The position numbers and the translations under genes were made by a program. DNA of 64,000 nt from a virus (Duplodnaviria > Caudoviricetes). This document shows, in pieces, positions 7,853-43,075 of this stretch. Positions within the stretch are counted from its first letter, which is position 1, and each line of letters begins with the position of its first letter. Where the stretch lies: IMG/VR virus record IMGVR_UViG_3300044710_000053, positions 1,769 through 65,768 of that record. One strand, 5' to 3'. The notes under the pieces are model-generated. The model had not been told where the DNA came from. It did not search any database and saw only the letters and a program-made list of their open reading frames with translations.

Positions 7853-8388
7853 CTCAGCTTCTCCCGCAGCCACGACCGCGCCTCTTTCAATCGACCGGCA
7901 ACCTCTTCGGGCGTAATCTCGTAAGTTTGCGCCAGTTCCTTGAGCGTCTTGGGGCGGCCGCAGATACCGTAGTGCCAGCGCACGATGCCCCGCAATCGCC
8001 GCGGCAGCCTAGCGATGCTCCGATGCAGCCGCGCGACTTCTAGCAGGCTGCCAAGTTTGCCGGGTTGCGGCAACTCCTCGGCCGTTCCCAAGAGCATCGT
8101 CGAGAGCGCGCTGTGGGCCTTGGGATGCGTGGCGGCTTGCATGACGCGGCGGCTGATGCAGACCACCGCGCGACTGCGGAATCGTTCTGGGGGCGGTTGA
8201 TGCTGCCGGGCGGCTTCCACAAGCGCCAGGTTGGCCTCAGAGACCGGATCAAAGCACGGACGCCCTAGCCACGGGTGGCGGCGCACAAGTCGGCCGACGA
8301 TCAATTCCGGCAGATGGGCATGATCGGCGGCAAGCTGCTGCTGCTCTGGCGTGAGCGCTCGCGGATTCGGCTGCTGGGTTGCGATCAC
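7849..8388 (-). CDS. Sigma-70-family-like factor (region 2 plus region 4 HTH)
   Basis: SEANLALVEAAR (region 2.2-like); IARLPRRLRGIVRWHYG...TLKELAQTYEITPEEVAGRLKEARSWLR (region 4). Confidence 0.8.
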   Translation of the reverse strand: MIATQQPNPRALTPEQQQLAADHAHLPELIVGRLVRRHPWLGRPCFDPVSEANLALVEAARQHQPPPERFRSRAVVCISRRVMQAATHPKAHSALSTMLLGTAEELPQPGKLGSLLEVARLHRSIARLPRRLRGIVRWHYGICGRPKTLKELAQTYEITPEEVAGRLKEARSWLREKLS

Positions 8389-25593: not shown

Positions 25594-25821
25594 TCATCGA
25601 CCGCCTTGACGTTCGACTGCATGGTCGCCCTCCTTCATTAAGAACGCTTGGGAAATGAATCCGTGGACCGCTGCGAAGTGAATCAGCGCCGCGACGACTT
25701 CCGGTTCAACGAAAATCTCGTTGCTCGGATCGGTTGGCAATCCGTTCTCGGTAGTCAAACGGATCGCATAGCCGATGTTTTCGACATACACGCTATCGCC
25801 TAGATATTCTTTATTGCTCAC
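25594..25821 (-). CDS. Phage hypothetical protein
   Basis: YLGDSVYV...LTTENG...IFVEPEV, a common phage pattern. Confidence 0.7.
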   Translation of the reverse strand: MSNKEYLGDSVYVENIGYAIRLTTENGLPTDPSNEIFVEPEVVAALIHFAAVHGFISQAFLMKEGDHAVERQGGR

Positions 25822-26024
25822 GTTGTCGGTTCCTCTTCTGGCGGATTCAACGCGCCGACCAACGCAGTCAGCGCCTCGCGGGATTTCTTGGCAGCGTCAA
25901 AGATCGCCTCTTCGCCGTGTTGCTCTAGCAACTCGCACAGGTCGAGCGCGTCGAGCAGCATCTTCGTTTCGCGCTTGTCGAGCTTGATCGTCGGTTGCTC
26001 GCCCGCTTTGGCTGAAATCCTCAC
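25818..26024 (-). CDS. Hypothetical protein
   Basis: AAGGA SD; coupled ORF. Confidence 0.55.
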   Translation of the reverse strand: MRISAKAGEQPTIKLDKRETKMLLDALDLCELLEQHGEEAIFDAAKKSREALTALVGALNPPEEEPTT

Positions 26025-26292
26025 GGAAGATTCCTTTCGATTAAAAAGCTCGCGCCGCCTGCGACTCTTTGAGGGCCGGACAGCGCCAGAAGAATCGCGC
26101 GGCGGCGCGAGTGGATCGTCCTGGGAATCGGCTGTCCGGCCAACGCGAGGATCTTATCCTCCGGCCTAATCCGTGTCAACAAGTTTTTTCTGCACTCTCT
26201 GGGCGCGGGGTGTCGGCTCCAAGAGCGCGAAGCGGTCAATTGCCGCGCTGGTACGTTGGTTCCGGCAGTCCCATCGCATCATCCTCGGTCGT

Positions 26293-27515: not shown

Positions 27516-27755
27516 TCAAAAGGGAACGCCAGAATCGCCCGAGAGGTCCACAGTCTCTAAGATTTCCAGTAGTCGCTGCCGGCACATCCCCGGTCCAATC
27601 GGTCGCGCAGCAAGTTGCTTCGCGTAAATCTCTCGCTCGAAAGGATGTAATTCGGAAGCCAGCAAGCTGAGTACCATTGGCCCAAGCGAATCGAGTTCCG
27701 GCCCAAGTTCTCGTTCGCGTTCGATCGCCTTCACTCTGTCGAGTTGCCAGCCCAT
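27516..27755 (-). CDS. Hypothetical protein
   Basis: MGWQLDRV...; TAATG overlap; ends GVPF. Confidence 0.55.
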   Translation of the reverse strand: MGWQLDRVKAIERERELGPELDSLGPMVLSLLASELHPFEREIYAKQLAARPIGPGMCRQRLLEILETVDLSGDSGVPF

Positions 27756-28558
27756 TAGCAGTTCACTCGTTTTACAGGTCGCCGATGACTCGGCCAGTTG
27801 CAAACGATTTTCAACGCGCCGTCGCACATGCGGTCCCACGTAGCCGAGCCCATCCGTTCTTTGGCTTCTTGGTCGCTGGCCACATTCACAGTCACAATCG
27901 TCGGAAGGCAGCCGGCTGACCTATCATCCAAGAGCCGGTAGAGCATCGTGGCCTGAAATGGAGTCAGCGGCCCAAACGGCGGGAGCGGGTCCGACACGAC
28001 CAGAACAGTCGGCCGTGCCTTCGCTCCGATTTGCGTCTCTTCACTCAGGCCGCGTTCCTTCCCGATTTCGTCGCGCACCGAGCCAAACCAATCCTGGCAG
28101 TTCATCCATTCGACTCGCGTTCCGTGCTGCCGCAAGAGCGCCCGCAGAATCGAAAAAGCCAGATGATCCTTGCCTGTCCCGCATGGGCCGCAGAATAGAA
28201 CCCCGCTAGACTCTGGCGTGAATGAGTCGATGTATTCCCGAACCGCGGCGACGGCATTCTGTTGTCCCGGCAACGGAGCGTCGAAGGTTTCCAGGGAGTA
28301 ATCCTCGAATCGTTTTCCAGCGGATGTAATCAGCTTGCCCCAAATGACTGACTTGGCAGCGGCAATCTTGGATCGCTCGGCTTCCGCGTGCCTTTGGGCG
28401 CGGGCGGCGTCTGCCGCCTGCTCCTCCGGAGTAGGCGATTCCAGCCGCCTGCTCATTTCCGCCAGCCGCTCTCGGAACGGGTCATTCGGAGAAGTCGAGC
28501 TTTGCGGTGGGGTCGTAGGATTGGCCTGGTCCCTGTCGGTGTCCTGCTGGTTTTCCAT
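27755..28558 (-). CDS. DnaC/IstB-like AAA+ helicase loader
   Basis: GGAGG SD; RFEDYSLETF, GPCGTGKDHLA (Walker A), LVVSD (variant Walker B), LYRLLDDR..LPTIVTVN, WDRM. Confidence 0.85.
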   Translation of the reverse strand: MENQQDTDRDQANPTTPPQSSTSPNDPFRERLAEMSRRLESPTPEEQAADAARAQRHAEAERSKIAAAKSVIWGKLITSAGKRFEDYSLETFDAPLPGQQNAVAAVREYIDSFTPESSGVLFCGPCGTGKDHLAFSILRALLRQHGTRVEWMNCQDWFGSVRDEIGKERGLSEETQIGAKARPTVLVVSDPLPPFGPLTPFQATMLYRLLDDRSAGCLPTIVTVNVASDQEAKERMGSATWDRMCDGALKIVCNWPSHRRPVKRVNC

Positions 28559-29270
28559 TTGAACCTCCTTTATCGTTTTGGGCTCGATCCATCCACCGGA
28601 ACAAAAAACTCATCATGCCGCGGGCCGTCTTGCGTTTGCCAGGGTTCGCCTCTGTCCAGGCCAACGCCTTGCGGCATTGCGCGAGAACGTCGAGCGCCGG
28701 GAAGCCTCCGGCGAGCTTGTCGATGTGCTCTTGGCGAAGCTCCCATGTCGGAGCTGGTCCGGCTGTCGCAAAGGTCAGGATCGGCGGCTTCGAGTCCGCG
28801 GCAAGCGGCTCGGAGCTACCTTCCAATCCCTTCCCTACGCTACGCTTCTCTACGCTTGGAAACCCTACGCTAGTAGTCGCGTCTGGGGTCGTATTCTTGA
28901 AACTCTTATCCATAGTCTTAGTCTTAGTCTTAGTCTTTGACGTAAACACTTCAACCTTATCGCGTAACAGCTTTGCCTTGCACCACGATGGCATGTGCTC
29001 CGACCAGTCGTGAATAATCAACCTCGCAGCTTTGTGTTCGTCCAAAAAGCCCGCCAAGACTAGGTGTGACACAAAAAACTTGGGATCGAGCGCCCAGCAG
29101 CACGCCTTTGCGATGGTTCCGTCGCTGTGCCGCCCTATGTCCCCTCGTGGCGAATAGCGCGATGTGAACCGCCAAAGAAGCTCAAGGGTTCCCAACGTGG
29201 CCGGAAGGTCCAGATTCAGCCGGCTCATCAAGTCGAGCGTCTTAGGGTGCTCTGGGCAGTCGATTTTCAC
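28482..29270 (-). CDS. Phage replication initiator protein
   Basis: N-terminal HPK...LGTLELLW...GDI..., IIHDWSEH; low-complexity KTKTKTKT linker; C-terminal FLFRWMDRAQN; directly upstream of the DnaC-like gene. Confidence 0.75.
   Translation of the reverse strand: MKIDCPEHPKTLDLMSRLNLDLPATLGTLELLWRFTSRYSPRGDIGRHSDGTIAKACCWALDPKFFVSHLVLAGFLDEHKAARLIIHDWSEHMPSWCKAKLLRDKVEVFTSKTKTKTKTMDKSFKNTTPDATTSVGFPSVEKRSVGKGLEGSSEPLAADSKPPILTFATAGPAPTWELRQEHIDKLAGGFPALDVLAQCRKALAWTEANPGKRKTARGMMSFLFRWMDRAQNDKGGSNGKPAGHRQGPGQSYDPTAKLDFSE
28835..28936. repeat. Short repeats inside the initiator gene (candidate origin iterons)
   Basis: Four TACGCT copies (28836-28871) and (TAGTCT)4 at 28913-28936. Confidence 0.5.
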
Positions 29271-29338
29271 GCCCGCGGACTCCGAGCCGGCCCGTCCCTG
29301 CGGCTCCGTACTGCCGCACGTCCTTGGGCCAACCGTCT

Positions 29339-29469
29339 AAAAAGCACCGCACACCCGGCTTAGCGAATGATCGGTCAGAACCAGAGCGCTAAACCGGGGG
29401 CGGCGTGGATTGCATGGGAAGTTCTGACCGAACGTGGCTGAATCTACAAAAGCCCACGGCGCGAGTCAA
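29339..29469 (-). ncRNA. Promoter plus ~95-nt structured RNA, unit B
   Basis: TTGACT-17-TAGATT; stem TCGGTCAGAAC/GTTCTGACCGA; blocks GCAATCCACGCCGCCCC and GGTGTGCGGTGCTTTTT shared with unit A. Confidence 0.65.
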
Positions 29470-29529
29470 GAGAAGTTCGGCCATCGTCGGATTCCTTCTC
29501 CGGCCTCGTCGCCGGGCATCCGTGGATCG

Positions 29530-29658
29530 AAAAAGCACCGCACACCGCCGGCTACAAATATCCGTGAGGGGGAGAGTGCAGTCGGCGGGGCGGCGTGGAT
29601 TGCTGGTAATTCCCTCACGGAACGCGGTTACTCTAGCGACTGGCTCAAGAGATTGCAA
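29530..29658 (-). ncRNA. Promoter plus ~95-nt structured RNA, unit A
   Basis: TTGCAA-17-TAGAGT; stem TCCGTGAGGG/CCCTCACGGA; same two conserved blocks as unit B, 189 bp apart. Confidence 0.65.
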
Positions 29659-29661
29659 GAG

Positions 29662-29893
29662 AAAAAATGGCCGTCTCTCCGACCTGTCGCGTCGTTCCGG
29701 CTAAGCTGACGTTGCCGCATAGTTCCCCGGACGGAATCTCGCGCTAGTGCCTGCGGTCGCGCGAGCGCTGACAAGAGCTTCGGATTTCTCCTACACGGTC
29801 TCGCAGGGCCAGTTATTTTGTTGCCGGTCTTTCCCGGCTGCCAGCGGATAGGATTCGCCTTGCGGCTACTTAGAGGCCAAGCCTCCTAATCCT
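29662..29893 (-). ncRNA. Candidate structured RNA with three-way junction, possible pseudoknot and two GA(A/G)AGA-loop hairpins
   Basis: No credible ORF; stems read directly from the sequence (see findings). Confidence 0.45.
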
Positions 29894-30163
29894 CGATGTT
29901 TCGCACCGCCTCGAACACTACTCAAGTAGAGGTTCATGGGCTATCAGCGGCTCCCGTAGTAGCATTGGCCGTCATCTTCCTCTTGCGGCTCATCGACTCC
30001 CTCTCCCCAATCATCGGCCCAGTGCGTTTGGCACTGGGCGCACCCGCAGTCGTCTTGGCCGTCAACATGGTCACATTCCGGGCATTGCTTGGGTAATTAT
30101 ATACTTGCCTCATCACGCCACTAAACTATTTTGGAATTCTTGCCTGATTTGCGGGCTAGGTAC

Positions 30164-30191
30164 TTGACTCATCCGGCGAAGGGTGTAAAAT
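30164..30191 (+). promoter_or_regulatory. IS-internal sigma70-type promoter overlapping a subterminal IR-like repeat
   Basis: TTGACT-16-TAAAAT; TACTTGACTCATC resembles the IR segment TACTTGCCTCATC. Confidence 0.6.
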
Positions 30192-30235
30192 AGTGGTAGA
30201 CGCGGGGCAATCACGAACGCGAAAGGACGTGGGCC

Positions 30236-30583
30236 ATGATGCAGGAAACTCAATCTGTCACGATGCTTGGTAAGTTCAGTCATCTGCCGCCATTTAGCAA
30301 AGACGGCAAGTTGCAGTTGTGCAGCGATTGCGGACACTATGTTCGGCGCACGATCAATGTCTGTCCGTTTTGTCATCCGCGAACCTGCCCCGCAATCTTC
30401 GAGTTGTGCGATGGCGAAGCCATTGGAATCGTGCGCGTCTATTGCTCTCAAGAGTGTCGAGAGAAGGACGACAAGGTGTACCGCGAGGATGTTTCTTCGC
30501 CAACCGACGTGCAACTTTGTCACGGCGAAAGCCCTATTCCAGCCCAAGCCCATTGCTGGAATTGCGACAAACCACTCGACTAA
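30236..30583 (+). CDS. IS passenger, multi-Cys zinc-binding protein
   Basis: AAGGA SD; CSDC, CPFC, CSQEC, CWNC. Confidence 0.6.
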   Translation: MMQETQSVTMLGKFSHLPPFSKDGKLQLCSDCGHYVRRTINVCPFCHPRTCPAIFELCDGEAIGIVRVYCSQECREKDDKVYREDVSSPTDVQLCHGESPIPAQAHCWNCDKPLD

Positions 30584-30589
30584 GAAGCA

Positions 30590-30886
30590 ATGACCATGAA
30601 CGCCATCACGAAACAGCGCCGAGCAGTAATTGCGAAGATTCTTGCCGAGAATCCGCTGTTTCCACCCGTTGCACTTCGGAGGCCCAAGCATCTCATCGGG
30701 GTAGACGGTAAGAACCACGGATTTTTCGTTGTGAACAACCCGAAGATGATTCTTGATCGAAAAGCCTACCGGCAAATTGTGGCGGAGGCGGTCGAATTGA
30801 AACTCGACCGCAGACTGTTCATCTTCGGGCGCATCGCTACATACATCGGACCAGGCATTGAATTTATGCAGTTGGGAGCCGGATAG
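30590..30886 (+). CDS. IS passenger, hypothetical protein
   Basis: 98 aa between the first passenger and the transposase. Confidence 0.65.
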   Translation: MTMNAITKQRRAVIAKILAENPLFPPVALRRPKHLIGVDGKNHGFFVVNNPKMILDRKAYRQIVAEAVELKLDRRLFIFGRIATYIGPGIEFMQLGAG

Positions 30887-30889
30887 AAC

Positions 30890-31846
30890 ATGACAAACGA
30901 CACCCCCGAAACCCTGTTGGAAGCCGTCAAGTATTTCTCCGATCCAAAGGTATGCTTCACCCACATGCTGGCCGTGAAGTGGCCCGATGGGAAAGTCTGC
31001 TGCCCAAAGTGCGGCAGCCAGTCGGTCGGCATCATCGCCAGTCGGTCGATGCTGCAATGCAAGGTGAAAACCTGCCGCAAGCAATTCAGCGTGAAGGTGG
31101 ACACGATTTTTGAAGATAGCCCGCTGGGGCTGGACAAGTGGTTTGTGGCCGTCTGGTGCATCGCCAACGCCAAGAATGGAATTAGCTCTTGCGAGTTGGC
31201 TCGCGCGATTGGCGTGACTCAGAAAACGGCGTGGTTTCTGTTGCACCGCGTTCGGCTGGCGATGGCGACGCGCTCGTTCCACAAGTTGGACGGGGAGGTT
31301 GAAGTCGATGAGACTTTCATCGGCGGCAAATCGGCCAACATGCACAAGAGCAAACGCGAGCGGCTGATTACCGGGCGCGGCACCGTCGGGAAGGCAATCG
31401 TCCAGGGGCTCTTGCAACGCGGCGGAGAGGCTCGCATGGAGGTTGTCGGCAGCACGGACGACATTACGCTGCAAAGCACCGTGCGGGCCAACGTCGAACC
31501 CGGTGCGAACGTCTACACGGATGCTCTGCCGTCCTACGCTGGCCTGTGTCTGAGCTACTTCCATGCGTTCGTTGACCACCTGACAAAGTACGTCGAGGGG
31601 CGCGTTCACACGAACGGCTTGGAGAACTTTTTTGGCCTGTTCAAGAGGTGCCTCAAGGGAACCTACGTGTCGATGGCACCTTACCACCTGCGCCGCTACT
31701 TGGACGAGCAAACCTACCGCTTCAACAATCGCGGTACGACCGACCGCAGCCGCTTCCTGGGCGTTCTCTCGGCGGTTGTCGGACGCCGAATCACCTACCG
31801 CGTTCTGACTGCCCAGAACGATGCGGGCTTTATGGGGATCAAGTGA
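30890..31846 (+). CDS. IS1595-family transposase
   Basis: Zn ribbon KWPDG..CPKCGS..C...CRKQFSV; KNGISS.ELAR..GVTQKTAWF; VEVDET, VYTD, HTNGLENF; YLDE..YRFNNR. Confidence 0.97.
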   Translation: MTNDTPETLLEAVKYFSDPKVCFTHMLAVKWPDGKVCCPKCGSQSVGIIASRSMLQCKVKTCRKQFSVKVDTIFEDSPLGLDKWFVAVWCIANAKNGISSCELARAIGVTQKTAWFLLHRVRLAMATRSFHKLDGEVEVDETFIGGKSANMHKSKRERLITGRGTVGKAIVQGLLQRGGEARMEVVGSTDDITLQSTVRANVEPGANVYTDALPSYAGLCLSYFHAFVDHLTKYVEGRVHTNGLENFFGLFKRCLKGTYVSMAPYHLRRYLDEQTYRFNNRGTTDRSRFLGVLSAVVGRRITYRVLTAQNDAGFMGIK

Positions 31847-31847
31847 G

Positions 31848-32153
31848 ATGGAAATTGATGGGCTTCGAAAAGCATACAACCAACGAGATGACGTGGCTTT
31901 CGAGAAGTTAGTCGCGGAAATAGTGGAGTTGAGTGTGCAGCATGACAAAGTGCGTGATGAAAACTGGAAACTATTCGACAGCCTCACATTTGCATTGGGG
32001 GAAGTCCAAGAACTTGTGGACACGATTGGCTCATTCTCCTGCCGCTTCTGCAAAAGTAACTTCACGCGGAGCTTGAAAGATAAGATTCGGCACAAGGCAG
32101 ATTGCCCATATCGCCGGGCTAAGGAACTGCTCAAAAAGAAAATCAAGGAATGA
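31848..32153 (+). CDS. IS passenger, hypothetical protein
   Basis: MEIDGLRK...; CRFC...H...C motif; lower GC. Confidence 0.6.
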   Translation: MEIDGLRKAYNQRDDVAFEKLVAEIVELSVQHDKVRDENWKLFDSLTFALGEVQELVDTIGSFSCRFCKSNFTRSLKDKIRHKADCPYRRAKELLKKKIKE

Positions 32154-32163
32154 GGGCCGGTCA

Positions 32164-32295
32164 ATGACCACGAAGCACGAACGGATTGGCGAGTTTCGCA
32201 AGCTGCTGGGCAAGCTGGTGCGCGTGCCGAAAGCGGAAGTCGCCCGCGAGCAAGAGCGGATCGACCGAAAACGGGCAGGCAAGCGCAAAAAGTAG
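32164..32295 (+). CDS. 43-aa basic ORF at the IS right end (not in ORF track)
   Basis: MTTKHERIGEFRKLLGKLVRVPKAEVAREQ...RKK; GAGG SD. Confidence 0.6.
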   Translation: MTTKHERIGEFRKLLGKLVRVPKAEVAREQERIDRKRAGKRKK

Positions 32296-32374
32296 GCGTC
32301 ACGGGGTTTGATGAGTGAAGTATATAATTACCATTGCTTGCCCTCTTCCATTTCCGAAAAACAGTTTGGGCAAT

Positions 32375-32755
32375 TCATGGTCCGCACCTCACGCGCCCAC
32401 ACGTCGGGCATTTGCCATCGTCCCTGGGAGCCGGAAACGGCGGCGGTTCCATCGCGCCACCCATCAAGGGCATCCACCACTGCGGCCTCCATGCCAATAC
32501 CCTTCCGCAATCGGGGCCGGTCTGGCTCAGCCAAACACTTCCGGTCCACAGTGCTGCGCCACCGGCAACAATCACAATACGATGCGGCTCGGGCATCTTG
32601 TCGGACGTTCGGATCGCTTCGATCAGAAGTGGTTCGGTTCCAATAGTCCGTCTTGGCAACGGTGGCTTTGGGCATGGACCGCTATAGCCGTGAAACTTGA
32701 ACATCTCTTCGCCATCGGGCATCGGCTCGCCGCAGAGTTCGCAAGTCGCTGTCAT
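32375..32755 (-). CDS. Phage hypothetical protein
   Basis: CELCGEPMPDGEEMFKFHGYSGPCPKPPL N-terminal module. Confidence 0.65.
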   Translation of the reverse strand: MTATCELCGEPMPDGEEMFKFHGYSGPCPKPPLPRRTIGTEPLLIEAIRTSDKMPEPHRIVIVAGGAALWTGSVWLSQTGPDCGRVLAWRPQWWMPLMGGAMEPPPFPAPRDDGKCPTCGRVRCGP

Positions 32756-32997
32756 TCGTAATCCTTCAGGTAGGCATCTTCTCTGGGATTGAATCGCTGG
32801 CGCCTCACCAGCGCCATCAATTCATCCCAGAAAGCGTTGTCGGCCTTCGTCGTCGCGGTCAAGATGAGAGTCCATTGAAATCCTTTCGGAAAAAGCACCG
32901 CCGCCGTTGCGACTAATCCGGAAAGGAAAGAGCGCAAGCGGCAGGCGGGCTGTAATCCAGTGAGTAGTCCTTTCCGGGAACGCGAGCCATTAAAACC

Positions 32998-33198
32998 TCA
33001 GTCGCTCGGCTTTGCAATAGCAGTTCCGGAATTTTCTTGTACGGCCGAGATACGCCGTCGAATTTGCCTCGCCACCAACTCCAACAGCGCTAGTAGGTCG
33101 GCCGCATCTTCGGCATCGAGACCACCGGGATAGCTCACCGTCGCTATGCCGCCTCCGACAAAATTCCATGAATATTCGCGTTGCCGTGCTTCGCTCAT
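32998..33198 (-). CDS. Hypothetical protein
   Basis: MSEARQREY... with GGAG SD. Confidence 0.5.
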   Translation of the reverse strand: MSEARQREYSWNFVGGGIATVSYPGGLDAEDAADLLALLELVARQIRRRISAVQENSGTAIAKPSD

Positions 33199-34480: not shown

Positions 34481-34843
34481 TCACAAGCTTCCTGCCGCCT
34501 TGCGTCTGCGGACCTCGCTGATGCTGACGCCTAGACTTGTAGCCAATTGCCGAACTGTCGGACCTCTCTCTGGCTGATTCGCGCTATCGGGATGCACCGT
34601 GCGACTCTTGATCTGCGATGAATGGTACTGACGAAACGCAGCGCATTTACCGCCGCTATAGGCTTCGCAGCCGTTGCAAATGTTGCCGCCCGTTTCGTGC
34701 TGTAGCGCATTGAACAGCAGCGAGAATCTTCCCGCAGAGAGCAAAACGTCGGACTCAACATCCGCGCCGGTTTGTATACATCCAGCGCGGTGAAGCTCGA
34801 CGAAAGAGCCTGTTAGTCGTCCGGTAGGCACTGAATCTCTCAC
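34481..34843 (-). CDS. Hypothetical protein with C-terminal HTH
   Basis: AGGAG SD; TVRQLATSLGVSISEVRRRK. Confidence 0.6.
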   Translation of the reverse strand: MRDSVPTGRLTGSFVELHRAGCIQTGADVESDVLLSAGRFSLLFNALQHETGGNICNGCEAYSGGKCAAFRQYHSSQIKSRTVHPDSANQPERGPTVRQLATSLGVSISEVRRRKAAGSL

Positions 34844-34930
34844 GGATTTTTGCTCCTGTTCTCAAAAAGCGCCGACCGTACAGAGATAAACGGCCGGCGC
34901 GGTTCTCTGGCGACAAGCCAGAAATCGTGG

Positions 34931-35177: not shown

Positions 35178-36416
35178 TCACTTCGCTCCTGCTGTGGCTT
35201 TCTTGGCAGGCTTGAATCGCTCCACCGATGCCTTGTAGCCGTCGTTGCTGGTCTTTTGCAGCGCGTCGCGCTCGGCTTCCGGTAGCTTGGCGATTTTCAG
35301 TTCGACCGTGTTGGCCCAGTTCGTTGCATCGGTCATGTTCTCGGCTGCGCCATAGCCTTCGAGGATGAGACTGCGCGTCAGGGTCGGCGGTTGCTCGTCG
35401 TGCCCCACGGCTGGGTCGATCGGCTGCTCTTGGCTCACGTCGGCCGGCGCCGGCGGGTCGATGCCTTCGGTTTCAGGAGGTGGCGATTCGTCTACCGCCT
35501 CGTGGTGGCGGTTGCCGTTGGGTGCCGGCGCGATGTTATCGGGGAGAGAGCGGCGGGTTAGCTTATGGCCGTTCTGTTTTTCGACCGGCACTCCCTCAAA
35601 TTCCTCTTCGTCGATTTGCACGGCGCGATTGTAGGCCGGGTCGTCCACCTTACCCTTGAGCCCGCGCTTGAGCACGGTCTTTTGCCCCATTTCGTCGAAA
35701 TAGTTTTTCCACGCCGGAGAGTCTGCGCTTGGGGATCGTGAGCGGATTTCATCGACTTCGCGGCGCGTCATCGTCTCAAAATCCCAGTCGCCTTCCGGGA
35801 GCACGATCACGACGTAATAGCCGTTCGTTGCTCCGCGATTGGACCCCAGCCGTGGCGGCTTGTGGACCAAATGATTTGTCGGACCATCGCGCCATGCCTC
35901 GAATTCATCAGCCTCGCAAACCGTGTCGGGAGTGATTCGCTTCACTCGGCCGGAGCGTAGGGCCAGCGCAGCGAGCCCTTTCCAGTCGATCAATAGTTGA
36001 GCCTGCTTCTCATACTTCGGACTCGATTTGGTTCCGATGTTGCAATTGAATGGGGCCGCGTGCGCCAACTTGCCGTCGATCATCAATCCGACTTCCGCCG
36101 CGCGGAGGATGCACCGCAGCACGCTTGCGCCGGTGCATTCCTGCATTTCCGATTTTTCGGAGAACGTAACTAGCGCCCGCTGAATCAGCCTCTCGGCTTG
36201 GCCCTTCATGGCCGGCGGGAGCACCGTTTCGAGGTTGCCGATTTGCGCCAAGAGCGAGACGCGCAAGGCCTTGGCAATCATCTGCCGTGGCGCTGGTTTC
36301 TCTTTGCCATCGGCCTCTTGCACCATGTTGTGCAACAAAATCGCGTTCGCCTCTTGAGGCGTCATTTCGTGCGGCTGCGTTGCGGCCTGGGGCCGCTGTT
36401 GGGTGGCGGTTGCCAT
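35178..36416 (-). CDS. recT: RecT-family single-strand annealing protein
   Basis: CTGASVLRC...GL, AQLLIDWKGL..LALRSG, PAWKNYFDEMGQKTVLKR; adjacent to a RecE-like gene. Confidence 0.9.
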   Translation of the reverse strand: MATATQQRPQAATQPHEMTPQEANAILLHNMVQEADGKEKPAPRQMIAKALRVSLLAQIGNLETVLPPAMKGQAERLIQRALVTFSEKSEMQECTGASVLRCILRAAEVGLMIDGKLAHAAPFNCNIGTKSSPKYEKQAQLLIDWKGLAALALRSGRVKRITPDTVCEADEFEAWRDGPTNHLVHKPPRLGSNRGATNGYYVVIVLPEGDWDFETMTRREVDEIRSRSPSADSPAWKNYFDEMGQKTVLKRGLKGKVDDPAYNRAVQIDEEEFEGVPVEKQNGHKLTRRSLPDNIAPAPNGNRHHEAVDESPPPETEGIDPPAPADVSQEQPIDPAVGHDEQPPTLTRSLILEGYGAAENMTDATNWANTVELKIAKLPEAERDALQKTSNDGYKASVERFKPAKKATAGAK

Positions 36417-37288
36417 TATTCGATACCTCGTGTTTCATCTTCGTATTGAGCCCACCGTGGCAAGCTCAGGGGAATGACGCCAAAGCCCCAGTCCGGCCGC
36501 CAGTCGTCGCGCTCGGCGCACTTCGCCAATTGCGTTAGGTCGTTGGAATTCTGCACGATGCCCAGCGCCATCGCGTCGTCGTCGAGTTCGTAGACCGCTA
36601 CCGAATGCGGCGGCTCGTTTTCGACGGCGATGAAGTAGAACGGCGCGGCAGGCTCGCCAATCGCGCGGCTGCCGGTGTCATAGTAGGCTGCTTGGCGGGC
36701 ATATCCGAGACTCGCCGCGGCCCGCGCGAATCCGGCGGGTGAAGCATCGCGGCATGTTTTCAAATCGGCGCGGAACGTCGAGCGCGACAGGTCGCGGAGC
36801 GCTTTGCATGGCACGCCGCATTGCTCCCAAATGATTGCCGATTCGCGCCGCTCGGCCGACGCGAGCAAGCGGCTTGCCTCATCGTGGCGGCTGATAGAGT
36901 CGGCCATCGCGGTTATCATGGCCAACTCTTCCGTCTCGATAATCTGCTTGCCTTCATCATGGGCCGCGAAATAGAGCGAATCGCGCTCATCGCGGTGTGT
37001 CGAGCTTTTCCAATTCCAGGGCTTGCCGCTGCTGTGTGTAGCGGGTAATTGGATCATCGTCCTGTCGAATCGCGCCGGCTCAAGCACTAGCAAATGTAAG
37101 AGCGTGCCGAGCTTCATTTGCAGCGAGGGCTCCGGCGCGGGAATCGTCCGCGCGATGAATCGGCCGTAATACTCGGCCGGATTGCGGCGGAACACTTCTA
37201 GCATTGAATGCCCGACGCGCTCGTTTTCGGCGTGGTACTGCTCAGTCGTACATGGCCAGAGCCCGGCGGTCTGCTCAATCGTCGTCAT
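36416..37288 (-). CDS. Exonuclease VIII/RecE C-terminal-like PD-(D/E)xK nuclease (DUF3799-like)
   Basis: YHA...HS.L, GTLLH..VLEP, CKALRD, DLKT, YARQAAYY, FYFIAVENEPPH. Confidence 0.88.
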   Translation of the reverse strand: MTTIEQTAGLWPCTTEQYHAENERVGHSMLEVFRRNPAEYYGRFIARTIPAPEPSLQMKLGTLLHLLVLEPARFDRTMIQLPATHSSGKPWNWKSSTHRDERDSLYFAAHDEGKQIIETEELAMITAMADSISRHDEASRLLASAERRESAIIWEQCGVPCKALRDLSRSTFRADLKTCRDASPAGFARAAASLGYARQAAYYDTGSRAIGEPAAPFYFIAVENEPPHSVAVYELDDDAMALGIVQNSNDLTQLAKCAERDDWRPDWGFGVIPLSLPRWAQYEDETRGIE

Positions 37289-37290
37289 AT

Positions 37291-37578
37291 TTAGTTCACC
37301 TTGTCGTATACTTCGTTCTCGATCGTCTCGATCCAACAGCCGAGCTTGTCGAGTTCTTCCGCAGTCGGCCGGCGCACCACAATCGCGTCGGCCGAACAAT
37401 CGCGCACTTGCTCGATTTCGATTCGCTCGAAGTCCACGCCGCCCGCCCCCGGGTCGGTATCGATGCAGCAGTCAATCGCCAAGTCAATTTCCGTGTGGCG
37501 CTCAAAGTCGTCGCCTTCACGGATTGGCCGACCGTCGGCGATGTACAGCGTGGCGTGGGCTAGTTCGTGGCGGATCAT
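37291..37578 (-). CDS. Acidic hypothetical protein
   Basis: ATGA overlap with the csrA stop. Confidence 0.55.
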   Translation of the reverse strand: MIRHELAHATLYIADGRPIREGDDFERHTEIDLAIDCCIDTDPGAGGVDFERIEIEQVRDCSADAIVVRRPTAEELDKLGCWIETIENEVYDKVN

Positions 37579-37778
37579 GCGGCACCTTTCGCCTTCGCCA
37601 GCGACAAGACTTCGCCGGCCGCTTTCATGGAGTCGTAAATTTCACGCCTGTTGATCGCCACGTGCGGCGGCGCTTGCACGCCGATCTTGACCGTGTTCGC
37701 GTCGATGCGCACGACCACGATTTCAATATCGTTGCCCACCATGATCGAGTCGCCCTCCTCACGTCGTAGGATTAACAC
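37575..37778 (-). CDS. csrA: CsrA/RsmA family RNA-binding translational regulator
   Basis: AAGGAG SD, GTG 37778: MLILRREEGDSIMVGNDIEIVVV...VKIGVQAP..VAINRREIY. Confidence 0.93.
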   Translation of the reverse strand: MLILRREEGDSIMVGNDIEIVVVRIDANTVKIGVQAPPHVAINRREIYDSMKAAGEVLSLAKAKGAA

Positions 37779-37809
37779 GGTCGCACTCCTTTGCTCGCCC
37801 CGTTCGGTT

Positions 37810-38025
37810 TCAGCCCCTGCCGCCCCAGCCAATATCTTTGCTACAAGCCGTGTGCAGTTCGTCGCCTCCCGGCTTGGCGCGAAGTTCCTTCATCCGCTGC
37901 GCCCAGTAATTGCCCGTCGCGCCTTGAAACCATTTGTCTCCCATCGGGGCATTGCGCCAATGCTCGAATAGAGCGTGGTAGCTCATGCCGTCGATTCGGG
38001 CCTTGTTTTCCGGTGTCAGGTCCAT
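37810..38025 (-). CDS. Phage hypothetical protein
   Basis: IDGMSY..L...WRNAP.GD.WFQG...SKDIGW pattern; AGGAG SD. Confidence 0.7.
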   Translation of the reverse strand: MDLTPENKARIDGMSYHALFEHWRNAPMGDKWFQGATGNYWAQRMKELRAKPGGDELHTACSKDIGWGGRG

Positions 38026-38892: not shown

Positions 38893-39108
38893 TTAGGTTC
38901 CTTTCGCCGCTGCGGCTTCGCGCTTTTGCGACAGTGCCCAGCACTCGGGGCAAATCCAACGGTTGCCGCTCAGCCGGACCCAGCCGTCAGCAACGGCCGC
39001 TAGTTCGGCTTGCTCGCTGGTGTCCCAAACGTCGCGCGAATCGCTCCCGTCATCGCAATCCGGCGCATCGCATGAACGGACGTACTCGACTCGAACTCTG
39101 ATTCCCAT
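38893..39108 (-). CDS. Small zinc-binding protein
   Basis: SCDAPDC...DGW...WICPEC. Confidence 0.65.
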   Translation of the reverse strand: MGIRVRVEYVRSCDAPDCDDGSDSRDVWDTSEQAELAAVADGWVRLSGNRWICPECWALSQKREAAAAKGT

Positions 39109-39114
39109 TTCAGG

Positions 39115-39342
39115 TCACTCCTTGTGCTGGTGGATCGACGCGACGGCATTGGCGCCGTCGTCGTTGGCGCTGCTAGCATCGTCGGCCCATACCAGCGTGC
39201 GGTCGCCGCCGTCGCTCAGATCGCCGTCGTGACCCATCGCCATCTCCGGGTACTGCTGGATCAGGATAGCCTCTGCCTCGCTGACAGAGGCGCAATCCAC
39301 ATCTGCCCGGCCGTCTGTGTAGTTGATGTAGTAGCTGCTCAT
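39115..39342 (-). CDS. Acidic hypothetical early protein
   Basis: AGGAG SD; RTLVWADDASSANDDGANAVASI. Confidence 0.65.
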   Translation of the reverse strand: MSSYYINYTDGRADVDCASVSEAEAILIQQYPEMAMGHDGDLSDGGDRTLVWADDASSANDDGANAVASIHQHKE

Positions 39343-39423
39343 GGTCGTGTCTCCTGTGTACAGTGGTCGGGGAGTAGCGGCCCCGGCCGGCCGCGGGCAC
39401 CGGCCGGGGCAAGGAAAGTCAGA

Positions 39424-39633
39424 TTAGCGGGCCGGTCCGCAGCGCTCAATCGTCTTGCCCGTCGCGGCCAGTCGGATCGTCACATCCTGATAGGTCAGGT
39501 CGCGTCGGCTCTCATACCGGGCGGCGATTTCGCGGGCCTCGGCCATCGTATCGCATTGCCCCACGATGCTCGGCGCAACACCGGCAGTCCTGGGAGCCCA
39601 TACGCACAGCTTGCTTTTGGTCGTGGTCGTCAT
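39424..39633 (-). CDS. Hypothetical early protein
   Basis: MTTTTKSK... with upstream purine-rich SD-like tract. Confidence 0.6.
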   Translation of the reverse strand: MTTTTKSKLCVWAPRTAGVAPSIVGQCDTMAEAREIAARYESRRDLTYQDVTIRLAATGKTIERCGPAR

Positions 39634-39697
39634 GGTCTCATTTCCTTTTTTCGCGTTGGCTGGTCCCAGGTTCCGCTGGGGCGGGCGGTGGTCCGCG

Positions 39698-40105
39698 TTA
39701 GGTTCTCATCGCTGCTATCTGCTGGTCGGTCAGGCCGTAGGTTGCCCTCAGCGCCGCCACTTCGGCCGCGCTCAGGCCCTTGTTCGGTGTGTTGCCAAAA
39801 TCCGGCGGGAAACGTCGAAACGTAAACTGCGGAATCGTCTCGGCCAGGTTGATCCACACTTCCTTGCGCCGCCCCAGCTTGCGATGCACGTCGCACAGCG
39901 GGCCAGTGACCCAGCACCAGCCGCCGAACGGCAAGCCCAGCGGCGGTGGCTCGGTCAGCTCCAGGCCGACGATCACCATACCCTTGAGCCAGATTGCCGA
40001 GTACGTGGCGCGGCAGTCGGGCCACTTCGCGTACTTGAGCCGGCCCGCAGCACAAGGTTTCCAATCAGGTCTTACTAGCGGCAGTTCCACGGCTCGCCTC
40101 CTCAT
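39698..40105 (-). CDS. Hypothetical protein (start uncertain)
   Basis: More protein-like of two overlapping frames. Confidence 0.4.
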   Translation of the reverse strand: MRRRAVELPLVRPDWKPCAAGRLKYAKWPDCRATYSAIWLKGMVIVGLELTEPPPLGLPFGGWCWVTGPLCDVHRKLGRRKEVWINLAETIPQFTFRRFPPDFGNTPNKGLSAAEVAALRATYGLTDQQIAAMRT

Positions 40106-40421
40106 CCGCTTGGGTAATCGCTGCCAAGTATTCAGCCTGCGCCACGCCTCGCGCGGTTTCGGCCGCTGTCAGTTCCTCTAAGGTCGCTTCTCGTTCGCGG
40201 AACCGGCCACGGACCAAGCCGCAAGCGCGCTTGGCGGCGCGGGCCTTGTTGCGGGCCGGATGCACGACAGCGAACCAGCGGGCCAGCTTGCCGTCGAGCG
40301 CGTCGGCCTCAGACTCACTGAGGCAGCGGCCGGCGCGGTGGCCAAATAGCGGCAGGCCGCACTCGCGACAAACTCCTGACGAGTCTTGCGGGGTCCACTG
40401 GCCGAATGAGCGGGGGGACAT
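40065..40421 (-). CDS. Hypothetical protein
   Basis: GGAG SD, MSPRSFG...CRECG...H...C then an Ala-rich helix. Confidence 0.55.
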   Translation of the reverse strand: MSPRSFGQWTPQDSSGVCRECGLPLFGHRAGRCLSESEADALDGKLARWFAVVHPARNKARAAKRACGLVRGRFREREATLEELTAAETARGVAQAEYLAAITQADEEASRGTAASKT

Positions 40422-40425
40422 AGGG

Positions 40426-40647
40426 TTACTCCGTAGGGATTGGGTCGCCGTAGCGCCAAAGGCGGCGCGGCTTAGCGGCCAGTTCTTCGAGTTGCTCAAC
40501 GCGCTGTGGCGAGAGTCGCACCAAGCGGCACATCTTCTGGCGGTCGATTTCGCTCAAGCGAAATCTCCAAGCGCGGCCAATCCAAAGGGCGATATTCCAG
40601 GTTTCATAGTTGGTCCAGCCGTTGTACTTCTTGTCGTCGGAACCCAT
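40426..40647 (-). CDS. Protein starting with YNGWTNYETWN motif, possibly truncated or chimeric
   Basis: GAGGAG SD; motif common in phage early proteins, then an abrupt change after ALWIG. Confidence 0.55.
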   Translation of the reverse strand: MGSDDKKYNGWTNYETWNIALWIGRAWRFRLSEIDRQKMCRLVRLSPQRVEQLEELAAKPRRLWRYGDPIPTE

Positions 40648-40714
40648 CTCAGAACTCCTCGCGGCAATGCCGCAATTGAAGGAAGCCGGCTAAACCGGCA
40701 GTAAGGTAATAGGC

Positions 40715-40743
40715 ACCATAACGCGCCGGGTGGGGCGCGTCAA
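40715..40743 (-). promoter_or_regulatory. Sigma70-type promoter with palindromic spacer
   Basis: TTGACG-17-TATGGT; ACGCGCC/GGCGCGT inverted repeat. Confidence 0.6.
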
Positions 40744-40749
40744 CGAAAA

Positions 40750-40920
40750 TCAGGCAGACGCTTCGACGAGGACCGCGATGTATCGACGCCCCATCGTGAT
40801 ATGGTAACTCCGGTGTTGGTACGCCGCCTTAGCCCGTCGGAGCGACCCCTTCACTTCCGCTCGCCAACTCTTGCGGATTCGGCGGAACATGGCGATTAGC
40901 TTGCGCGTCTCCGGCTTCAT
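40750..40920 (-). CDS. 56-aa basic protein (not in ORF track)
   Basis: AGGTG SD; MKPETRKLIAMFRRIRKSW... Confidence 0.5.
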   Translation of the reverse strand: MKPETRKLIAMFRRIRKSWRAEVKGSLRRAKAAYQHRSYHITMGRRYIAVLVEASA

Positions 40921-40994
40921 AGTTCACCTATTAGACAGGGTTATCGAACTGGCCCCAGCGGTGCGCCGTCGCTCAAACGGCGCACGGGCTGGAA

Positions 40995-41516
40995 TCAGGC
41001 CGCAGTTAGGTCGGTTTTCCACAGCTCCGGCCGCGCCGGATTACGGCCCGCATAGTCGTGCGCATCGTTGTCGCCAAGCCCCGCAGTCCTCGCCTCTTGG
41101 TAGCGAATCTGCCAGCGAGCCCAGCTAGCGTGTTCCCGCTCCGCTGGCGCACCGATGTCGATCGGGAAGTCTGCCGGCACCTTCTCGCAATCGTCCGCAG
41201 CCCAGCCGCATTGCAGCACATGCGCCGCAGCCCGCTGGATGATAACTTTGCGGTCCCACGCATCCGGCCCACAACTCCGGCCGTAGAGCGAGCCCACCCG
41301 CATCACACCCGTATCCCCTTCCCGCAACATCGCATCGCAGTAGCCGCTCCGTGGGTCGAAGTAGACGATCTTGGCCCATCCCCGCCAGCAGATGACGTAG
41401 GGTTGGCAATCGCCCGTCATGCCGGCCTTGATCTTCGCCCCAGCATCTTTCTTGGCCTCAGTGACGTTGCGCCCTTGGCCCTCAACGCCATAATAGTCGA
41501 TCTTCACGATACTCAT
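40995..41516 (-). CDS. Hypothetical early protein
   Basis: GGAG SD; 173 aa; WARWQIRYQEAR..GL. Confidence 0.7.
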   Translation of the reverse strand: MSIVKIDYYGVEGQGRNVTEAKKDAGAKIKAGMTGDCQPYVICWRGWAKIVYFDPRSGYCDAMLREGDTGVMRVGSLYGRSCGPDAWDRKVIIQRAAAHVLQCGWAADDCEKVPADFPIDIGAPAEREHASWARWQIRYQEARTAGLGDNDAHDYAGRNPARPELWKTDLTAA

Positions 41517-41596
41517 TCGGTTGCTCCCTCTGGCAGTGCCAGGTTACAGGGTTGTGGCCCGACGGGCGAAGTTACCCGCCGGGCAATCGCATGGAC

Positions 41597-41806
41597 TCAT
41601 CGAAGGACCGGGCAATGCTCGCCCTGGACCGAAACGTACACGCCAGGATTTAGACGCCTGATCTCGGCGACGACCACTTCGGCCGGCGCATTGGCTGTGA
41701 ACGCCGTGGAAATCGTGTCGCTCCCGAACAGGCACCGCACTTCGGGGTCGCTGTGCTGGCTCAACCAGCAGTCGCCAGGGCGACGGAATAGGATGATCGT
41801 GTGCAT
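41597..41806 (-). CDS. Hypothetical early protein
   Basis: AGGAG SD; DPEVRCLFGSDTISTAF...IRRLNPG pattern. Confidence 0.7.
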   Translation of the reverse strand: MHTIILFRRPGDCWLSQHSDPEVRCLFGSDTISTAFTANAPAEVVVAEIRRLNPGVYVSVQGEHCPVLR

Positions 41807-41849
41807 ATTGTGGTCTCCTGTGTGAGTGTGACAACCCCACCGCACGCAG

Positions 41850-42107
41850 TTAGGCCGTAGCCTTATCCGACAGCGCCGGCAAGCCCTTGCTGTGGTTCAA
41901 CGTCACCTGCACTGAGATCGTGCAAGGCACCGACACGCCGCCCACGTCCACAGTGCCCTGCGCATTCACGAAGTAACCCAGGCTATGCGTACTGAACTCA
42001 CGGGGCTCGGCGGACACGCTGTTGCCCGCTACGGGCACCACGAGGGGCTTGGCAGCAGCAGCGAACGCGGAACGGGACACGGGGCAGGTCTTAGCGGAAT
42101 TCGACAC
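41850..42107 (-). CDS. Small conserved hypothetical protein, first gene of the leftward arm
   Basis: AAGGA SD, GTG 42107; TCPVSRSAF...AKP...PREFSTHSLGY...SKGLP resembles a small protein I recall from planctomycetes. Confidence 0.65.
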   Translation of the reverse strand: MSNSAKTCPVSRSAFAAAAKPLVVPVAGNSVSAEPREFSTHSLGYFVNAQGTVDVGGVSVPCTISVQVTLNHSKGLPALSDKATA

Positions 42108-42109
42108 GG

Positions 42110-43075
42110 CAGAGTCCTTTGCCCCAGCGGGGCGGTTAAAGGGGCCGCAGTGAGCGGCGAAAGTCGGCGAGCGGAAAAACTCGCCGTTCGTAATTAGCAA
42201 GTTTGGCACGGTTTTTAACGACTTACGTCGATTCTCAAAACGAGAAAACCGACGTAAAGCCTTACTGCCAAACGAAAAGAATTTTTTCGGAATTTTTCCG
42301 TTGCCATGCACCCAAGCAATACAACCAGCAGGACTCCATGCCATGCACCGAAAAATCAGCGAAAATTTGCATCAAAAGAACCGCGATCCGTTAGGGCCGA
42401 CTCGCAAGCAGTGGGCCAGCATGGGTCAGACGCATCAATGGTCGTTGATGTATCAATGGGTGTCAGAAAGCTGACAGTGCTACCCACCCAAAAGGGTGGC
42501 AAGCAGAGACCTAGCATTTGCACTTCACGCCGTAACATGTTGCTTGCTAAGCACTTGCTGCTTGGGACGTGCCGTTGGTTCTTGGCACGTCAAGGTCGGC
42601 TCAGGCCACCCGGCAGGCCCCCCTTTCGCGGCTTGATGTAGTCAACATGCTACTCCCCGACTTTTACCGACCCCTGGATTTAGGCAATTCTGCCTCAACA
42701 GTCTCCCCCTAGCGAATCCCCTTGCGGTCTGGTTCGGCTATTGCCTTACTCGCCGCTGTAGGGGCTTTGGCCGATGGCCCTGATATTTCGCAGGATCAGC
42801 CCAGGACACGCTCGCGGCAGTAGTGTGGAGTGGCCGGCTGCCGGTCGTAGCGTTCGCTGTTTTGATGCCAGACATTTCCCCTCGGGGTCGGTCGCTGGCA
42901 AAGTCGTCCGATTTGCCAGTGGGGGCTATGTGCTGTCGTAGGCCACAGAGAGGAACCGTTTCCCGCCTCACGGGAAGGTTGGGCCTGAGAGTGTCAGGTC
43001 TCAAGCCGTCGATCTCGGGAAGGGCCGGCTCTACAGCCAGAGCCCCCCGAGACCTGACGATTCCATCATACCGCG
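42110..43075. other. Long non-coding control/divergence region; candidate genome end or packaging region
   Basis: No credible ORF; many inverted repeats; lies between the leftward early arm and the rightward structural arm. Confidence 0.6.

Follow-up and report, generated by a model that had tools for sequence, protein, structure and literature searches.

Identification of four leader-like units in a phage early region

A set of four related units, hereafter A to D, was identified on the minus strand of a phage genome, in a window of 64,000 nucleotides corresponding to bases 1769-65768 of the IMG/VR record IMGVR_UViG_3300044710_000053 (all coordinates are window positions). In each of them, a sigma70-like promoter is followed by a short segment (X), a linker and an intrinsic terminator whose loop carries the perfect complement of X (X′). 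To judge by their sequence, the four units are a real and uncatalogued RNA feature, which is larger than first thought, as an initial annotation of the window had described only A and B. They are tentatively read here as paralogous, promoter-proximal leader cassettes, that is, conditional terminators that would gate early gene blocks and be tuned by an X:X′ pseudoknot; this is the reading we favour, although our confidence in it falls a little short of even.

Units A (29530-29658) and B (29339-29469) are arranged in tandem with a period of 189-190 bp, preceded by TTCTC, and their promoter-like sites and T-runs were found in the sequence as initially described. In unit A, the -35 hexamer TTGCAA (29658-29653) and the -10 hexamer TAGAGT (29635-29630) are followed by GCGTT at the transcript start, X (29621-29612), a linker with ATCCAC and a hairpin with its 5′ strand at 29595-29577, X′ in the loop (29570-29561) and its 3′ strand at 29556-29536, closing with five Ts (T5, 29534-29530). 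Unit B presents TTGACT (29469-29464), TAGATT (29446-29441), ACGTT, X (29431-29421), the hairpin 5′ strand (29405-29387), X′ in the loop (29381-29371), the 3′ strand (29365-29345) and T5 (29343-29339). The order shared by both units is promoter, X, the 17-nt block GCAATCCACGCCGCCCC, GC(A/G)CTCT, X′, GGTGTGCGGTGC and T5, and the 17-nt blocks GCAATCCACGCCGCCCC and GGTGTGCGGTGCTTTTT are identical between them, while X and X′ are perfect complements over 10 nt in A and 11 nt in B. The loop motif GCGCTCT is, we presume, vaguely like a boxA-type element, and the plus-strand complement of the core presumably has a vague likeness to one class of CRISPR repeats at their end; no weight is given to either likeness here.

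The other two units were found with the covariance model that the initial annotation had suggested building from both copies. This model, restricted to the hairpin and run unfiltered over the whole window, gave unit C as its third match (32984-32888, minus strand; 30.4 bits, E 3e-6) and unit D as its fourth (26147-26041, minus strand; 16.8 bits, E 0.014). Unit C as a whole spans 32890-33017 and comprises a -35 TTGCAA (33017-33012), a -10 TTTAAT (32994-32989), GCGTT, X (32977-32968), a hairpin at about 32951-32894 with X′ in the loop (32927-32918) and T5 (32894-32890). Unit D, the most diverged of the four, spans 26043-26179, with a -35 TTGACA (26179-26174), a -10 TAAGAT (26156-26151), GCGTT, X (26141-26131), a hairpin at about 26111-26049 with X′ in the loop (26084-26074) and T5 (26047-26043).

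Overall, the four units share the same anatomy. The -35 and -10 hexamers are separated by 17 nt in all of them, GCGTT or ACGTT appears 4-5 nt after the -10 hexamer, and X begins no more than 2 nt from the end of this pentamer and lies 26-30 nt upstream of the hairpin base. The 5′ segment and the terminator loop are perfectly complementary over 10-11 bp in every unit, and the linker of 15-19 nt carries an ATCCAC-like motif (consensus around UUCCCAGG..GAUCCAC). The predicted RNA is about 95-105 nt long from its start to the T-run. Moreover, all four hairpins have the form of an intrinsic terminator, with a GC-rich stem of 16-20 pairs ending 1 nt before T5, which in C and D comes directly after GC; their loops measured 16-21 nt in the structural scan described below, and the generic terminator scan, which considers loops of 3-8 nt only, does not call the full hairpins. 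The U-tract of these putative terminators is only 5 long.

A fifth unit was not found in the window by a second covariance model rebuilt from all four units, and the first model, run over the whole 65.8-kb phage genome with an E cut-off of 1, recovered A, B and C alone. A pattern of promoter plus GCGTT recovered the four units on the minus strand and three loose matches elsewhere, all with poor -10 hexamers and no other unit parts. The sequence at 34929-34862 (minus strand) was considered as a fifth unit and rejected, being a plain intrinsic terminator (an 11-pair stem, CTCT in the loop and T5) with neither promoter nor X; it shows a weak similarity to the models (12.8-16.2 bits) and directly precedes the ribosome site and GTG start of an early open reading frame (ORF) at 34481-34843. 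Furthermore, a weak terminator-like hairpin with T6 lies directly upstream of the unit A promoter (29669-29684, minus strand), and further upstream, at about 29735-29765 (minus strand), a 7-pair hairpin that reuses the sequence of the outer unit D stem precedes a TTCCGT motif; this hairpin may be a relic of another unit, and neither covariance model scores it.

Covariation and chance controls

The pairing of A and B was evaluated over 31 proposed pairs, for which 95.2% of the 62 cells of the alignment were standard pairs. A total of 11 of these pairs had changed on both sides, four of the 12 in X:X′ and seven of the 19 in the hairpin, and none of 500 shuffles reached the observed pairing, while slid controls were paired at 31-44%. 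The covariation of X and X′, initially taken to imply selection on structure, is present, the four differences between A and B being all compensated. However, the two copies of X/X′ do not differ almost entirely, as had been stated, since six of ten aligned pairs are identical and four differ. The conserved blocks do pair with each other, as was also proposed, and form the base of the terminator hairpin; what had been overlooked is that this hairpin has 19 pairs, with a covarying upper half. It is the minimum-energy fold of each A/B RNA, with X′ in the loop, and of its upper 12 pairs almost none are the same in the two units, although all stay paired. Accordingly, the segment AGCCGG.., initially listed as conserved, is really the 3′ strand of this second covarying helix, the upper terminator stem.

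When the four units were compared, 95.6% of the 68 hairpin cells were paired and 10 of the 19 pairs had changed on both sides (0 of 500 shuffles), a pairing figure that leans towards structure because the alignment was fitted to the structure model. For X:X′, anchored on the conserved CGTT, eight columns were Watson-Crick in all four units, with two to three pair types per column. In addition, a structural scan was performed for T-runs after a long stem with a large loop, scoring the longest perfect complement of the loop within the 45 nt upstream of the stem. Among the 44 candidates of the window, the four units scored 10, 10, 11 and 11, and the other 40 at most 8. The same scan over 836,602 bases from 91 unrelated or distantly related loci gave 342 candidates, of which one reached 9 (it lies within an apparent membrane-protein coding region) and none 10.

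Cognate X:X′ duplexes were predicted at -16.4 to -23.8 kcal/mol, far stronger than all 12 non-cognate combinations (-3.1 to -9.3 kcal/mol), and therefore the four X/X′ pairs are mutually orthogonal. Nevertheless, the initial view of X and X′ as variable specificity segments is weakened, as the upper terminator stem varies too and covaries at least as much as X:X′ (7/19 vs. 4/12 pairs), which fits drift under structural constraint. Because this stem drifts with compensation to such a degree, the variable segments need not be determinants of target specificity and seem rather to drift while their structure is maintained; avoidance of mispairing between the tandem units may have added to the divergence of X.

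Predicted folding and proposed mechanism

When the nascent RNA was cut at the end of X′, the predicted fold was X:X′ in all four units (mean pair probability of 0.97-0.98), while the nested minimum-energy fold of the full-length RNA, under a model without pseudoknots, was the terminator in all of them (-37 to -52 kcal/mol). The crossing topology, initially described as a pseudoknot or two exclusive folds, is present. As X:X′ has no nucleotide in common with the terminator stems, a pseudoknot containing both would be possible in principle. The hairpin was predicted at -27 to -40 kcal/mol when X and X′ were kept unpaired, and the X:X′ duplex at -16 to -24 kcal/mol.

The mechanism proposed under the favoured reading would be as follows. 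Transcription from the sigma70-like promoter would give an RNA that begins with GCGUU (ACGUU in B) and continues with X; X′ would be made about 45 nt later, and the RNA would end at the intrinsic terminator, about 95-105 nt from its start. According to the computed folds, X:X′ would form while the 3′ strand of the terminator is still to be transcribed, and by way of the linker it would tether the beginning of the RNA to the terminator loop. This could have two consequences: either X:X′ strains the structure and blocks the closing of the lower conserved stem next to the U-tract, leading to read-through, or a compact pseudoknot fixes the leakiness of the terminator. In both cases, whatever opens X:X′ would shift the balance towards termination. 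The outcome would be short RNAs by default, while the genes downstream of each unit would be expressed in a dosed or timed manner, with the tandem A and B as a double gate ahead of the replication genes.

A bolder variant, which we regard as decidedly improbable, is a self-addressed gate that needs neither protein nor ligand. The cis X:X′ helix would form first and mechanically stop the last conserved terminator pairs, leading to read-through, while freed short RNAs, refolded into the complete terminator and exposing X′ in a loop of 16-21 nt, would capture the 5′ ends of new RNAs made from that same unit and restore termination. Were this true, one phage would harbour four orthogonal negative-feedback gates, each with its own X of 10-11 nt and two of them in series before the replication genes, which would amount to copy-number or immunity control without a repressor. 

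Under the favoured mechanism, gating of transcription would be compact and portable, needing a promoter, a 10-nt 5′ address and a terminator loop with the anti-address, with no stem overlap, ligand or protein, and the phage would provide a natural set of four orthogonal parts. If, on the contrary, the terminators are merely leaky or the RNAs inert, all that is left is a family of orphan RNAs in a phage that is itself an orphan.

Position of the units relative to downstream genes

The layout behind the terminators points to a leader role for three of the units. No more than 15-19 nt separate the T-runs of C and D from a start codon that is itself preceded by a sequence like a ribosome site, namely AAAGGA and an ATG at 32875 for C, and AAAGGAA and a GTG at 26024 for D. 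The GTG behind unit D opens a 68-aa ORF (25818-26024, minus strand), while the region behind unit C (32375-32875, minus strand) contains a mini-ORF of 17 codons beginning at that ATG, then a 126-aa ORF (32375-32755), after which comes a 729-aa orphan ORF (30113-32302). Behind unit B, the T-run is followed by a GC-rich leader of 69 nt and then by the start of the replication initiator gene, whose identification in the initial annotation was confirmed by a family match (phrog_9474, E 1.2e-19) and by tblastn matches. A generic promoter scan called no promoter-like site between terminator and gene start in B, C or D, and thus the genes behind these units must be read through the terminators, from their own or an upstream promoter, so that the terminators are conditional or leaky by necessity. 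This suggests that the units, A excepted, are 5′ leaders rather than only free-standing RNA genes. The two options initially offered, serial attenuators or small RNAs, both remain live, with the ribosome sites after the terminators of C and D and the lack of promoter-like sites after B, C and D favouring action in cis. In contrast, the link initially drawn to the replication initiator stands only in that A and B precede it; because C and D precede other early genes, the module is, by its placement, not specific to that gene.

Some further observations were made in these downstream regions. The 71 nt from the unit B terminator through the replication start codon (29268-29338, minus strand) contain four GGA, compared with 1.1 expected, one of them in the ribosome-site region. 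Mini-ORFs of 17 codons follow both A (29519-29466) and C (32875-32822) on the minus strand, with a ribosome site only after C and a faint likeness between their peptides. Moreover, two 10-mers that differ by one mismatch from the X of unit A lie exactly over GTG starts (26018-26027 and 34837-34846, minus strand), those of the genes after unit D and after the plain terminator, with some further similarity beyond the 10-mers. In total, eight such one-mismatch 10-mers were found vs. about 3.8 expected by our own estimate, which is not beyond chance by count or duplex energy.

Assessment of the favoured reading and its alternatives

Several points weigh against the conditional-terminator reading. 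Regarding the promoters, the -35/-10 pairs with a 17-nt spacer initially proposed for A and B are there, but the generic promoter scan calls B (9/12) and not A (8/12), and of the newly found units it passes D (10/12) and not C, whose -10 hexamer has no A at position 2; the consensus used may not be that of the host. Unit A leads to unit B and not to a credible gene, with only a 17-codon ORF lacking a ribosome site in between. Furthermore, hairpin and X:X′ sum to -43 to -63 kcal/mol before a pseudoknot penalty and, with an assumed penalty allowed for, are roughly as stable as the nested minimum, so that coexistence is possible; X:X′ might hinder, help or leave termination unaffected, depending on the geometry, namely on whether a linker of 15-19 nt allows the bottom pairs beside the U-tract to close with X:X′ in place. 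Transcripts extended upstream retain X:X′ in A and D, and hence the units do not obviously tell their own transcripts from upstream ones; the idea of an insulator, with X masked in transcripts from upstream, is unsupported for these two units. Finally, all the covariation comes from four paralogues of one genome, no homologue having been found outside the phage.

Among the alternatives, the units might instead encode stand-alone, trans-acting small RNAs of about 95 nt, in which the linker, X or X′ would pair with host or phage mRNAs or bind a protein, the helices serving as a scaffold and a protected 5′ end. In favour of this, a separate promoter and terminator belong to every unit, no gene lies behind unit A, the linker and the lower terminator stem are better conserved than the helices, and Escherichia coli small RNAs can use terminator loops for target pairing (PMC11979758). 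However, the search for targets of X and X′ in the phage gave nothing beyond chance, with further copies at no more than 1-2 mismatches in near-chance numbers. Paired against 281 candidate ORF starts in the phage, the loops formed no better best duplexes than shuffled loops did (best vs. shuffled mean: -19.5 vs. -21.7 for A, -22.8 vs. -22.0 for B, -20.3 vs. -21.6 for C and, leaving out its own antisense overlap, -32.5 vs. -32.7 for D), and in C and D a leader role is indicated by the ribosome site that comes right behind the terminator. We consider trans-acting RNAs unlikely on this evidence. It is distinctly more doubtful, in our judgement, that the units act by self-feedback in the manner of P4 CI or IsrK, where the short RNA, its terminator complete and its X and X′ unpaired, would with its X′ loop take the nascent X in trans ahead of synthesis of the nascent X′, prevent the cis X:X′ helix and favour termination, with X/X′ as the address of each unit. 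The strength of cognate over non-cognate duplexes and the orthogonality of the units suit this idea, as does the change of four X pairs and seven stem pairs between A and B while their blocks stayed identical, and P4 and IsrK offer precedents for a leader RNA acting on its own leader or read-through form (PMC4825925). Yet the intramolecular X:X′ helix should beat pairing in trans unless the two folds are truly exclusive, no third downstream box equivalent to seqC appears at no more than one mismatch near any unit, neither the C4 nor the isrK model of Rfam gives a match, and orthogonality is equally well explained by drift or by selection against mispairing in read-through transcripts.

A protein could also be in charge, the units being antitermination sites analogous to those of lambda Q or N/nut, with efficient terminators, the short RNAs as by-products and a phage factor that reads the conserved blocks, as DNA or RNA, and allows the polymerase through. 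The invariance of the blocks between A and B despite a change of about 50% in the helices suggests recognition of sequence and not pairing alone, and the plain terminator at about 34929-34862, before another early gene, shows an operon punctuated by terminators. In addition, the same early array contains a gene for a CsrA-family RNA-binding protein (37575-37832, minus strand; PF02599, E 7.3e-19, 67.9 bits), a candidate factor for the GGA-rich leaders: GGA appears 20 times vs. 10.9 expected over units and downstream leaders, and four times in the stretch ahead of the replication gene, and CsrA homologues encoded by phages are already on record (PMC8450108). On the other side, the ORF subsets scanned against Pfam, PHROGs and NCBIfam contained no member of an antiterminator family such as Q or N, which is weak evidence given that most ORFs of this phage are family-less. 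Unit B RNA has no GGA, the four RNAs alone have 8 vs. about 6.2 expected, and much of the excess is ribosome-site sequence; moreover, antitermination leaves the compensatory upkeep of X:X′ unexplained, and it is in our view rather improbable. Lastly, no RNA feature might be involved at all, the units being a small coding gene, inverted repeats arisen by chance, or repeats that act as DNA (origin iterons or operators). Their place next to replication genes would suit an origin, and ORFs of 50-99 aa overlap A and B, but inverted repeats with a different sequence in every unit and yet complementary cannot be accounted for by one DNA-binding protein, Pfam gave no family for those of the overlapping ORFs that were scanned, and the architecture occurs four times, always with promoter and T-run on the same strand, with negative chance controls. 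This last explanation is hardly credible.

Genomic context

The record that contains the units has 65,768 bp, a GC content of 60% and direct terminal repeats, and is estimated to be complete. An integrase at 6289-7338 indicates that this uncultured phage is temperate, and near it lies an ORF of 179 aa (7849-8388, minus strand) with a sigma-70 region 4 domain (PF04545, E 5e-6), possibly a phage-encoded sigma-like factor. The units sit in a long minus-strand, leftward early gene array, in which family matches were found for a PDDEXK-like exonuclease (36416-37399) and RecT (35178-36416), followed by several orphan ORFs and the 729-aa ORF, which adjoins A and B upstream. Both units are harboured by the gap of 842 bp between this ORF and the replication initiator gene (28482-29270), beyond which come a DnaC-like helicase loader (27755-28558), a resolvase-like ORF and two DNA methylases, all on the same strand. 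By tblastn, the replication initiator matched proteins for replication initiation in 36 phage records, with identities of 24-43% for the 15 matches listed. Most ORFs had no family in Pfam, PHROGs, NCBIfam or PADLOC, and no tRNA-like genes were found. The third-position GC of the 729-aa ORF is low (0.54, most neighbours having 0.53-0.78), and it was dropped as a candidate RNA-guided partner, showing no family, PDB relative or Atlas lead.

Regarding the host, all seven genome loci with relatives of the DnaC/IstB-like protein (27-43% identity) were Planctomycetota assemblies, a weak hint, since a single element present twice in the same genome seems to account for two of these loci. The stretch 38663-38477 (minus strand) contains the promoter of the early region that matches best (TTGACA-17-TACAAT, 11/12), followed 8 nt on by the ATG of a 49-aa helix-turn-helix protein (HTH_17/HTH_24), so that its message is, as predicted from this spacing, nearly leaderless, and no leader unit is present there. 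By codon-position GC, the minus-strand array appears to run on through 38900-42350, to about 42.3 kb, and several long plus-strand ORFs in this stretch are probably not genes.

Comparison with known systems

The comparison with Rfam proposed in the initial annotation, C4-type families included, gave no match. Rfam 15 returned zero matches over the whole window at the gathering score (the only such scan covering C and D) and, at E up to 10, zero for the 341 nt of A and B (29330-29670) and nothing relevant for 29000-30200, where one chance match to a lncRNA (long non-coding RNA) lay on the opposite strand. Viral, genome and metagenome collections were also scanned with exact and degenerate patterns. 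An exact 15-mer of the core had 75 matches in viral contigs, none with the 3′ block in matching context, and one fuzzy match of the 3′ block lay in an unrelated context. Gapped block patterns gave no viral match and chance matches only in genomes (three) and metagenomes (two), while a looser motif pattern from A, B and C gave none in viruses and 10 in genomes, none of them with 5′:loop pairing above 5 nt. The intergenic region had no blastn match among cultured phages. Relatives of the phage proteins were also sparse, with one viral locus, six distant proteins and no genome locus for the replication initiator, three viral and seven genome loci for the DnaC-like protein, and none for RecT or the major head protein. 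Neither covariance model found a unit in the loci and records of these relatives or in five whole genomes (a lone match of 22.7 bits was not a unit), and when three related viral records were put through the structural scan, none of the 165 candidates had a complement longer than 8 nt.

In lambda, the constitutive-looking promoter PR′ is followed about 100-200 nt on by the intrinsic terminator tR′, after the 6S RNA, and the operon behind it needs read-through via Q. The units share with it a promoter and then an intrinsic terminator ahead of genes that require read-through. In contrast to lambda, they occur in four copies inside the early operon, their 5′-end:loop helix has no lambda counterpart, and no homologue of Q, which in lambda works with a Q-binding element and a sigma-dependent pause, was found in the ORFs scanned.

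The nearest biological analogue, from the features compared here, would be the P4 CI RNA, although the units are not detectable members of the C4 or isrK families. P4 CI, P1/P7 c4 and Gifsy-1 IsrK form what we take to be the C4-type family of Rfam, and the specificity boxes of P4 CI and c4-type RNAs covary between heteroimmune phages. As in these systems, the units are phage leader RNAs with internal complementary boxes, placed for termination control of replication or early genes. However, P4 CI and c4-type leaders have three complementary boxes (upstream of the RNA, inside it and downstream), and there are only two here (X and X′), one of them in the loop of an intrinsic terminator, and no further X/X′ copy occurs at no more than one mismatch near any unit, the X of unit C merely resembling the ribosome site after its own terminator. 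Moreover, no processing signal was identified in the units, whereas P4 CI and c4-type RNAs mature by processing. Transcription of the P4 replication operon is terminated prematurely when an RNA derived from its leader base-pairs with complementary boxes there, and the short form of IsrK acts on its own read-through form, short form and message arising from one promoter (PMC4825925). Furthermore, the units do not resemble Csr/Rsm sponges, which expose many GGA in hairpin loops, as GGA occurs 2, 0, 4 and 2 times in the RNAs of A, B, C and D, respectively, compared with about 1.5-1.7 expected, without any Rfam match.

Closer mechanical parallels are provided by riboswitches. Structures just upstream of terminators are reported to suppress termination without overlap in the so-called 'tug-of-war' riboswitches (bioRxiv 10.64898/2026.06.17.733018); those structures are stabilized by a ligand, while in the units it is the loop of the terminator itself that pairs, and no ligand pocket is evident. 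For guanidine-IV riboswitches (mepA/GGAM-1), PMC7736828 proposes that a rigid contact with the terminator hairpin, without stem overlap, stretches the linker and blocks the outer terminator pairs, resulting in read-through. As in that class, an upstream segment of the units pairs with the terminator hairpin and does not overlap its stems. The units do not fall into the class, which has a conserved aptamer of two hairpins in loop-loop contact and is associated with guanidine-related genes, as they have no Rfam match and phage early or replication genes downstream, and they differ from it in that the partner is an unstructured, linear 5′ end instead of a hairpin loop, in that a perfect helix of this length should need no ligand, and in that they bring their own promoters, in four copies within one phage. 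Should the favoured mechanism hold, one that has so far only been proposed for guanidine-IV riboswitches would become broader.

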